Shown in pieces: positions 1-569 of a stretch of 569 bases of DNA. Made by a program: the position numbers and the translations under genes. Each line of letters begins with the position of its first letter. Within the stretch, counting starts at the first letter, position 1. The stretch comes from Escherichia coli (GTDB lineage: Bacteria > Pseudomonadota > Gammaproteobacteria > Enterobacterales > Enterobacteriaceae): assembly GCF_003334335.1 (NCBI RefSeq), contig NZ_QOWQ01000170.1; one strand, given 5' to 3'. The notes under the pieces were generated by a model. The model was not told where the DNA came from. It saw only the letters and a program-made list of their open reading frames with translations, and made no database searches.

Positions 1-569
1 CCGGACCACCCGGACCACAGGGTCCGGCAGGGCAAACCGGCCCGAAAGGGGATAAAGGTGAACCCGGCGCAACAGGTCCGGCAGGTCCCGCAGGCCCTCG
101 GGGAGAAACCGGCCCCGCAGGTCCTGCGGGTCCCGCAGGCAGTGTCGCCAGTGTTCCGGATGCCAGCACATCGCAGAAGGGTGTGGTGCTGTTGAGCAGT
201 GCCACAGACAGCGCTGAGGAAAACAAGGCCGCCACGCCGAAAGCGGTGAAGGCAGCAATGGATGCGGCAAATGCAGCGAAACAGCGTGCAGAAGAGGTGG
301 CGAAGGCTGGGGCATCAGGCAGCAGTATGCCGGGACCCAAAGGCGATCAGGGGCCACCGGGGCCGAAAGGTGAAAAAGGTGAACCGGGAGCAACAGGCCC
401 CGCAGGAAAGGATGGTGCCGCCGGAGCGGAAGGTAAGGCAGGTCCGGCAGGGCCACGAGGTGAAAGGGGACCAGCGGGGGCGCAGGGTGTTCCGGGGCCA
501 CAGGGCCCTGCCGGAGGGCGAGGGCCGATGGGACCGCCCGGGTTGGATGGTAAAACCGGACCACAGGGA
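1..569 (+). CDS. Partial (5' and 3' truncated) phage/prophage tail fibre protein with collagen-like Gly-X-Y repeats; codon phase begins at nt 3
   Basis: Frame 3 (nt 3-569) is open for all 189 codons, while + frames 1 and 2 contain stops (TGA 193-195, TGA 247-249; TAA 53-55). Translation: [189 protein letters not shown]. Strict Gly every third residue over 15 and 26 consecutive triplets cannot arise by chance. Product call rests on recalled similarity of the central motif to phage tail fibre repeats; not verified by search. Confidence 0.85.
3..140 (+). repeat. Collagen-like triple-helix tract 1: 15 uninterrupted Gly-X-Y triplets plus closing Gly (coding repeat inside the CDS)
   Basis: Codons at 3-140 read [46 protein letters not shown]. 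Pro is enriched at X, and charged residues (K, D, E, R) occur in X/Y positions. Confidence 0.9.
141..332 (+). other. Non-collagenous interruption (64 aa) containing a phage tail-fibre-repeat-like motif (core about nt 177-263)
   Basis: Translation [64 protein letters not shown]. The core [11 protein letters not shown]...[12 protein letters not shown] matches my recollection of the consensus of the short repeat in lambdoid side tail fibre proteins (Pfam 'Phage tail fibre repeat'). Family assignment is from memory. Confidence 0.65.
333..569 (+). repeat. Collagen-like triple-helix tract 2: 26 uninterrupted Gly-X-Y triplets plus Gly, continuing past the window end
   Basis: Codons at 333-569 read [79 protein letters not shown], with no break in Gly periodicity. 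Confidence 0.9.

Follow-up and report, generated by a model that had tools for sequence, protein, structure and literature searches.

The window, by which we mean the whole 569-nucleotide stretch of Escherichia coli DNA analysed here, comes from a lambdoid E. coli prophage, in which it covers codons 209-397 of an stf-like side tail fibre gene. We think it highly probable that the short direct repeats in this part of the fibre shaft are 9-nt Gly-X-Y codon triples that have been reused, that they act as substrates for insertions and deletions of which those keeping the Gly-X-Y register survive, and that they serve as crossover sites for the exchange of cassettes as well. Judged by its architecture, the window would come from mid-shaft in a side tail fibre of the EPclC type, expected to be a trimer; it holds the end of one collagen-like tract, a Pf2 fibre repeat and most of a second collagen tract.

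Gene identity and domain architecture

Frame 3 of the + strand is open throughout the window, and its translation runs from one (Gly-X-Y)n stretch through a non-collagen segment into a second (Gly-X-Y)n stretch. In a scan of viral contigs, the window was matched at 100% by IMGVR_UViG_2563366825_000027 (L004 hereafter), in which it occupies positions 3999-4567, and this contig supplied the full gene. The best PHROG family for the full protein is phrog_366, tail fiber protein (E 8e-130). The earlier note, made from the window's letters alone, had taken the repeats to encode a collagen or fibre-repeat shaft, which they do; both PF01391 and PF03406 are found within the window. PF01391 matches the full protein three times in Pfam. 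Collagen tract 1 begins immediately after PfN, at residue 136, with PCoil absent, and the remaining domains follow in the order given in Table 1. PF06820 (PfC) has no match in the Pfam scan of the full protein, and on this ground a PfC domain and membership of EPclB were rejected.

The fibre gene of L004 has J upstream, and tfa followed by a YadA/Eib-like gene downstream. E. coli prophage regions match the locus at 95-97% identity, the gene order in related E. coli prophages and phages is J, lom, fibre, tfa, eib, and phage P-EibA is among the window's BLAST matches. The whole window at high identity is absent from the complete E. coli genomes of the collection that we searched; the fibre gene is a new mosaic allele, as described below.

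Upstream of the fibre gene, at L004:2897-3376 (620-1100 nt upstream of the window), lom is absent and a hok/sok-type type I toxin-antitoxin module is present instead. Rfam RF01794 (sok) matches L004:2948-3105 with 59.6 bits, the gathering score being 59, and a Hok-like open reading frame of 46 aa (MSQKPLKTTVICITVVLIIWITHSSLCEFRFRIAGAEIAAFLQCKQ, L004:3094-3234) overlaps a mok-like one of 69 aa (3018-3227). Downstream of tfa, L004:5954-7228 encodes a 424-aa protein with the C-terminus of a YadA-like trimeric autotransporter, at the place where P-EibA-like prophages have their Eib-type cargo.

Table 1. Coordinates of domains, repeats, the mosaic segment and indel events in the fibre protein, its gene and the window (window positions in nucleotides)
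Feature	Position	Strand	Basis or remark
stf-like side tail fibre gene, 500 codons, 1503 nt	L004:3377-4879		full ORF
PfN domain (PF08400)	residues 1-134, full model length		E 3.6e-42, Pfam scan of full protein
Collagen tract 1, one GDPGGPPG break	residues 136-256 (136-192 plus 194-256)		tract parsing, PF01391
GDPGGPPG interruption	aa 187-194		common to all aligned relatives
Pf2 repeat (PF03406), single	residues 263-303		E 1.3e-14
Collagen tract 2, 30 triplets	residues 319-408		tract parsing, PF01391
C-terminal domain, 92 residues	after tract 2		without PfC match
Reading frame, gene codons 209-397	window 3..569	+	translation, 100% match to L004
Distal part of tract 1, GPPGPQ to GPAGPAG	window 3..140	+	PF01391, window residues 1-47, E 1.4e-8
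Phage_fiber_2 / Pf2 between both collagen tracts	window 165..290	+	PF03406, window residues 55-96, E 3e-15
Collagen tract 2, ending 39 nt beyond the window	window 333..569	+	PF01391, tract parsing
Perfect tandem CCGGACCAC array, 2 of 3 units (GPP-GPP-GPP) in window	1..18	+	Tandem Repeats Finder
13-mer CCGGACCACAGGG, copy 1, where the (GPP)3 array joins GPQ	10..22	+	exact match
13-mer CCGGACCACAGGG, copy 2, first unit of the (GGACCACAG)x2.9 = (GPQ)3 array	556..568	+	exact match; array L004:4556-4581
13-mer GGTCCGGCAGGGC (GPAG), copy 1	21..33	+	first 5 nt are the left endpoint of the L072 63-nt deletion
13-mer GGTCCGGCAGGGC, copy 2, within collagen tract 2	441..453	+	exact match
11-mer core GGTCCGGCAGG, further copy	75-85		exact match
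GGTCCCGCAGG, 10/11 copy of the 11-mer	84..94	+	right endpoint of the L072 deletion
56-nt imperfect direct repeat, 19 residues each	30..85 and 351..406	+	82% identity; partner copy in tract 2
Mosaic cassette, Pf2 and start of tract 2	179..417	+	informative-site runs, segment BLAST
Event 1, one CCGGACCAC unit gained or lost			3 copies in 3 distinct genes, 2 in 17; alignment with L007
Event 2, 45-nt deletion in L033 and L034	73-117	+	7-nt direct repeat CAGGTCC at 73-79 and 118-124
Event 3, 63-nt deletion in allele L072	GGTCC of the 11-mers at 21-31 and 84-94		microhomology 5
Event 4, 36-nt (4-triplet) indel	492/493	+	window CGGGGCC at 493..499
Event 5, one GGACCACAG (GPQ) unit gained or lost			3 vs 2 copies among alleles

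Repeats in the window

All of the exact repeats listed in the earlier note were recovered where it had placed them. Its reading of both CCGGACCACAGGG copies as PGPQG holds for the GPQG that they have in common, but the copy at 556-568 encodes T-GPQG (ACC GGA CCA CAG GGA). The 25/30 match of 57-86 to 378-407, with the same 10-residue peptide on both sides, was likewise confirmed, and it is the core of the longer 56-nt imperfect repeat. Tandem Repeats Finder places the (CCGGACCAC)3 array at L004:3990-4016 (3.0 copies at 100%), starting 9 nt upstream of the window, and the (GGACCACAG)x2.9 array extends 14 nt beyond the other end.

We compared the number of repeats with two null models. The first keeps the protein and its codon usage fixed and permutes synonymous codons inside the collagen tracts, per residue and X/Y position; the second shuffles the 9-nt Gly-X-Y codon triples as units. 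Under synonymous permutation, the window has more exact repeats than expected, both of at least 11 nt (7 against 2.5, P=0.017) and of at least 13 nt (3 against 0.6, P=0.027), and so does the whole shaft (18 against 8.3, P=0.01). There is no excess over the triplet shuffle, in which 6.5 repeats of at least 11 nt are expected where the window has 7 (P=0.42). The combination of an excess over permutation with none over the triplet shuffle indicates that the repeats reflect the reuse of identical 9-nt codon triples, with no need for any higher-order arrangement. The 11-mers to 13-mers would thus be the DNA image of the recurring triplets GPQ, GPA, GPP, GEP and GAT written in the same codons. Such reuse fits descent by duplication or homogenisation, and the tracts may have grown in this way from 9-nt units or small multiples of them. 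The sole multi-triplet signal above the null is a 6-triplet in-register block common to both tracts, with 44/54 positions identical where the triplet shuffle gives 38.7 +/- 1.5 (P=0.01).

Tract 2 also contains a perfect 12-nt inverted repeat, TCCGGCAGGGCC / GGCCCTGCCGGA, at window positions 443-454 and 504-515, one of eight inverted pairs, which is probably a consequence of the near-palindromic coding of GPAG. On the minus strand, an antisense open frame of 383 aa (L004:3480-4631) spans the whole window, and there are several other long spurious open reading frames. We set the 383-aa frame aside, since most likely it merely results from the composition of DNA that encodes Gly and Pro, which is GC-rich and poor in stops; the window's inverted repeats and its long antisense frame are both expected from the GGN-CCN-GCN composition. 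A structured RNA was also considered and rejected: no Rfam family is significant within the window, and a permissive Rfam search returned a miRNA match at chance level (22 bits, gathering score 82).

Length variation among natural alleles

Fibre genes were taken from 82 loci and their architecture was parsed. Each gene has an N-terminal module of either 135 aa or 229/243 aa and one or two Pf2 units; the C-terminal domains fall into at least seven kinds, whose distribution is independent of the other parts. The collagen tracts differ widely in length: in alleles sharing the ends of the gene studied here, the count is 30 to 39 triplets for tract 2 and 16 to 21 for the second part of tract 1.

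For the indels themselves, 57 distinct complete genes were compared pairwise with a stringent gap penalty and with at least 33/36 identical bases on each flank. Global DNA alignment with cheap gap extension had given noisy, out-of-frame gaps in diverged segments and was replaced by protein-guided and stringent-gap pairwise alignment. Of the 31 distinct clean collagen-tract indels found among these genes, 30 have a length divisible by 9, the shortest being 9 nt and the longest 198 nt. The only exception, a 40-nt event between L012 and L016, lies in a stretch in which these alleles are diverged and probably reflects misalignment. The earlier note's proposal that the shaft expands and contracts in multiples of 9 nt is therefore supported, although selection for the Gly-X-Y register yields such multiples under any mechanism, and thus the periodicity alone is no proof of slippage. 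Microhomology at the indel endpoints has a median of 6 nt, as opposed to 3 nt at in-register control positions (Wilcoxon p=0.0016); the excess is modest, as many events have 5-8 nt and the events are partly non-independent.

Five events, all with otherwise identical flanks, map to short direct or tandem repeats (Table 1), in agreement with the in-frame changes between repeats for which the earlier note had suggested that alleles be compared. Four of the five lie within the window, the other at its 5' edge; repeats listed in the earlier note take part in three. The region of the 45-nt deletion (73..124) overlaps the 11-mer at 75-85, as does one of its two CAGGTCC copies. At the 36-nt indel, L007, L002, L014 and L084 carry the additional 36 nt between two copies of CGGGGCC. 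The two perfect head-to-tail arrays, CCGGACCAC and GGACCACAG, vary in the manner of a VNTR, with 3 or 2 copies inside identical flanks. Arrays of only three units would nonetheless be expected to slip rarely and to change slowly. Some of the relatives are short-read assemblies, in which repeats may have been collapsed, but complete genomes and phage genomes show these events as well.

The collagen tracts of relatives contain perfect tandem duplications of 45, 90 or 99 nt. With a 99-nt (11-triplet) duplication, seen in the comparison of L017/L026, L019 and L037, the affected part of tract 1 has a length of 10, 21 or 32 triplets. A 45-nt duplication (GPQGPKGDTGAAGPA) accounts for 47 versus 52 triplets in the comparison of L036 with L039.

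Larger rearrangements are seen elsewhere in the family. The fibre gene of a close relative, that of E. coli 2013C-3033 (L083:1742-3301), has a second Pf2 after tract 2 and a different C-terminal domain; with this Col-Pf2-Col-Pf2 order, the family includes members that reiterate the Col-Pf2 unit. A 552-nt (184-codon) indel consisting of a Pf2 repeat and a globular insert of about 138 aa (KADGCLEKAKNGDD...) is seen among fibre genes with two Pf2 units (L063, L065, L066, L070 and others). This indel has Pf2 repeats at both ends and a junction microhomology of 11-14 nt, suggesting that it was gained or lost by recombination between Pf2 units.

Mosaic structure of the window

In a three-way comparison, the window follows the L003/L033 lineage up to position 125, follows the E. 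coli 2013C-3033 lineage from 179 to 417, and returns to L003/L033 from 419 onward. The 2013C-3033 allele matches window positions 129-499 at 97%. The centre of the window (about 179-417) is thus derived from another allele lineage. The crossovers lie within 126-178 and 394-418, in sequence common to both lineages: one at the end of tract 1 with its 12-residue junction, and the other inside tract 2.

Mechanism and alternatives

On the reading that we prefer, replication slippage could add or remove units at the two perfect 9-nt tandem arrays, while short-homology or unequal recombination could act between the dispersed repeat copies; together these would be the most economical sources of the indels. 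Only changes in multiples of 9 nt would survive, since they keep the Gly-X-Y register, and the outcome would be natural variation in shaft length of roughly 0.9 nm per triplet. Conserved sequences of the collagen tracts and junctions would be the crossover sites at which the central Pf2 cassette is exchanged between fibre alleles, and recombination between the fibre genes of co-resident prophages would contribute as well. The earlier note had called the repeats substrates for recombination; the natural alleles speak for this.

The earlier note had also pointed out that one and the same 13-mer occupies positions 10-22 and 556-568, and had seen in this a hint that the window is one period of a collagen/fibre-repeat module of about 546 nt, reiterated along the gene. 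Reiteration as such does occur in relatives, as the collagen-Pf2 unit is repeated with a period of 429 nt in L083 and others carry the 552-nt indel flanked by Pf2 repeats, but the two Pf2 units of L083 share just 59% DNA identity. The full gene studied here has a single Pf2, and its tract 2 passes directly into the C-terminal domain. Self-identity of the full gene at offset 546, which is a multiple of 3 and not of 9, is 0.363, slightly under the mean of 0.370 +/- 0.064 for other in-register offsets. No further copy of the 13-mers was found on either strand of the 8.5-kb L004 locus, and none of the compared alleles has a 546-nt indel. The match stops at 13 nt, and the two CCGGACCACAGGG copies belong to different local arrays, thus the coincidence of start and end comes from where the window was cut. 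We regard the 546-nt module as refuted for this gene, with next to no probability left to it.

Two other explanations deal with the repeats and the length differences themselves. The repeats might be a passive by-product of Gly-Pro-rich coding with biased codons, playing no role in variation. The triplet shuffles reproduce the repeat counts (P=0.42) and generate a 13-mer repeat in 83% of cases, and the antisense open frames and inverted repeats are composition effects too. The codon choice of the repeated peptides is, however, more uniform than the protein demands (P about 0.02), the copy number of the perfect tandem arrays varies, and the endpoints of indels in natural alleles fall on repeats with an excess of microhomology, so that we consider a pure by-product unlikely. 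It is considerably easier to believe, though still somewhat short of an even chance in our estimation, that the main source of the length differences is not intragenic slippage but homologous or ectopic recombination, as cassette exchange or gene conversion, between diverged fibre alleles that co-resident prophages carry. The window itself is a three-part mosaic, there are up to 7 matching places per genome (median 2), the N-terminal, Pf2 and C-terminal modules assort independently among the 82 loci, and Ghosh et al. invoke recombination between prophages. Against this as the main source stand several events with otherwise identical flanks that are more simply explained within one gene: changes of a single 9-nt unit in the perfect arrays, and the deletions of 45 and 63 nt, whose junctions show exact microhomology. 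The intragenic and inter-allele mechanisms are not mutually exclusive, and some of the variation in length may have entered through recombination with diverged alleles instead of being generated in place.

Comparison with known systems

The protein shows the features of EPcl type C: PfN, two collagen domains split by Pf2, a GDPGGPPG break, neither PfC nor PCoil, and the position of a lambdoid tail fibre gene. Published examples of EPclC are the ORF-401-like protein of phage P-EibA and ECED1_2081 (Ghosh et al. 2012, PMC3368898). As in that group, the domain order is PfN, Col, Pf2, Col and a non-PfC C-terminus, with no PCoil in this protein; its collagen lengths of about 120 and 90 aa are within the published range, and the fibre gene is near an eib (YadA-like) gene, as in P-EibA. 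The GDPGGPPG-type interruption has been described for EPclC, and the lengths of collagen domains in EPcl proteins have been reported to differ by multiples of three residues (PMC3368898), which is also how Col lengths vary between the alleles compared here. The L004 locus differs in having the hok/sok module in place of lom. The Ghosh paper treats length variation at the protein level only, whereas the present analysis maps its endpoints in the DNA. Experiments have shown EPclA to be trimeric, with a hinged stalk and a collagen triple helix (Ghosh et al. 2012, PMC3368898). By analogy, the present protein would be a trimer with triple helices of about 35 nm (tract 1) and 26 nm (tract 2), computed at the literature figure of 0.29 nm per residue, with Pf2 joining the two.

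A literature search joining stf, lambda and collagen found nothing. To our knowledge, the shaft of lambda Stf is non-collagenous. Lambda Stf (orf-401/orf-314) with Tfa is nevertheless similar in having a homologous PfN and Pf2 repeats and in the position of its gene between J and tfa; it differs in its C-terminal receptor-binding part, which is unrelated, and in that PMC3368898 lists no collagen domain for it. Pf2 of the present protein also resembles tail fibre protein S of phage Mu (PDB 5yvq), query residues 256-301 aligning to residues 106-151 of the chain (E 5.5e-6), with similarity detected in the Pf2 stretch only.

Strain-to-strain differences in the number of Gly-X-Y repeats are also a property of Legionella Lcl, the streptococcal Scl1 and Scl2 and Bacillus BclA, and in Lcl a change in GXY repeat number alters binding properties (PMC6460258). 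NCBIfam models for Scl and Lcl match the collagen tracts of the present protein, under their cut-offs. Outside the collagen tract, however, these proteins are unrelated to it, and they serve as adhesins on the cell surface, not as fibres of a virion. Long perfect tandem units are frequent among their repeats; most of the repeats described here, by contrast, are dispersed and imperfect, and there are only two perfect arrays, both short.

Significance

The observation made in the earlier note is correct, and the feature is an ordinary and largely known one: the protein family, its architecture and length variation in multiples of a triplet were described in 2012 (PMC3368898). What the present analysis adds is small, namely the mapping of indel endpoints at the DNA level and the refutation of the 546-nt module.

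Going beyond this, one might propose that gene conversion, or selection for evolvability, keeps the codons of the triples uniform, allowing fast tuning of shaft length in steps of 0.9 nm to the depth of O-antigen or capsule, together with crossovers that exchange Pf2 and receptor-binding cassettes. We rate this a long shot; if it were true, the repeats would be a built-in length-tuning device for host range, doubling as swap sites for the Pf2 and receptor-binding cassettes. A change in shaft length might also affect adsorption.

Side tail fibres give lambdoid phages, including carriers of virulence genes, faster adsorption and a wider host range. The in-register change of length at short repeats that double as crossover points helps in reading tail-fibre diversity in prophage surveys, and the mapped repeats and crossover points may be useful for fibre engineering.
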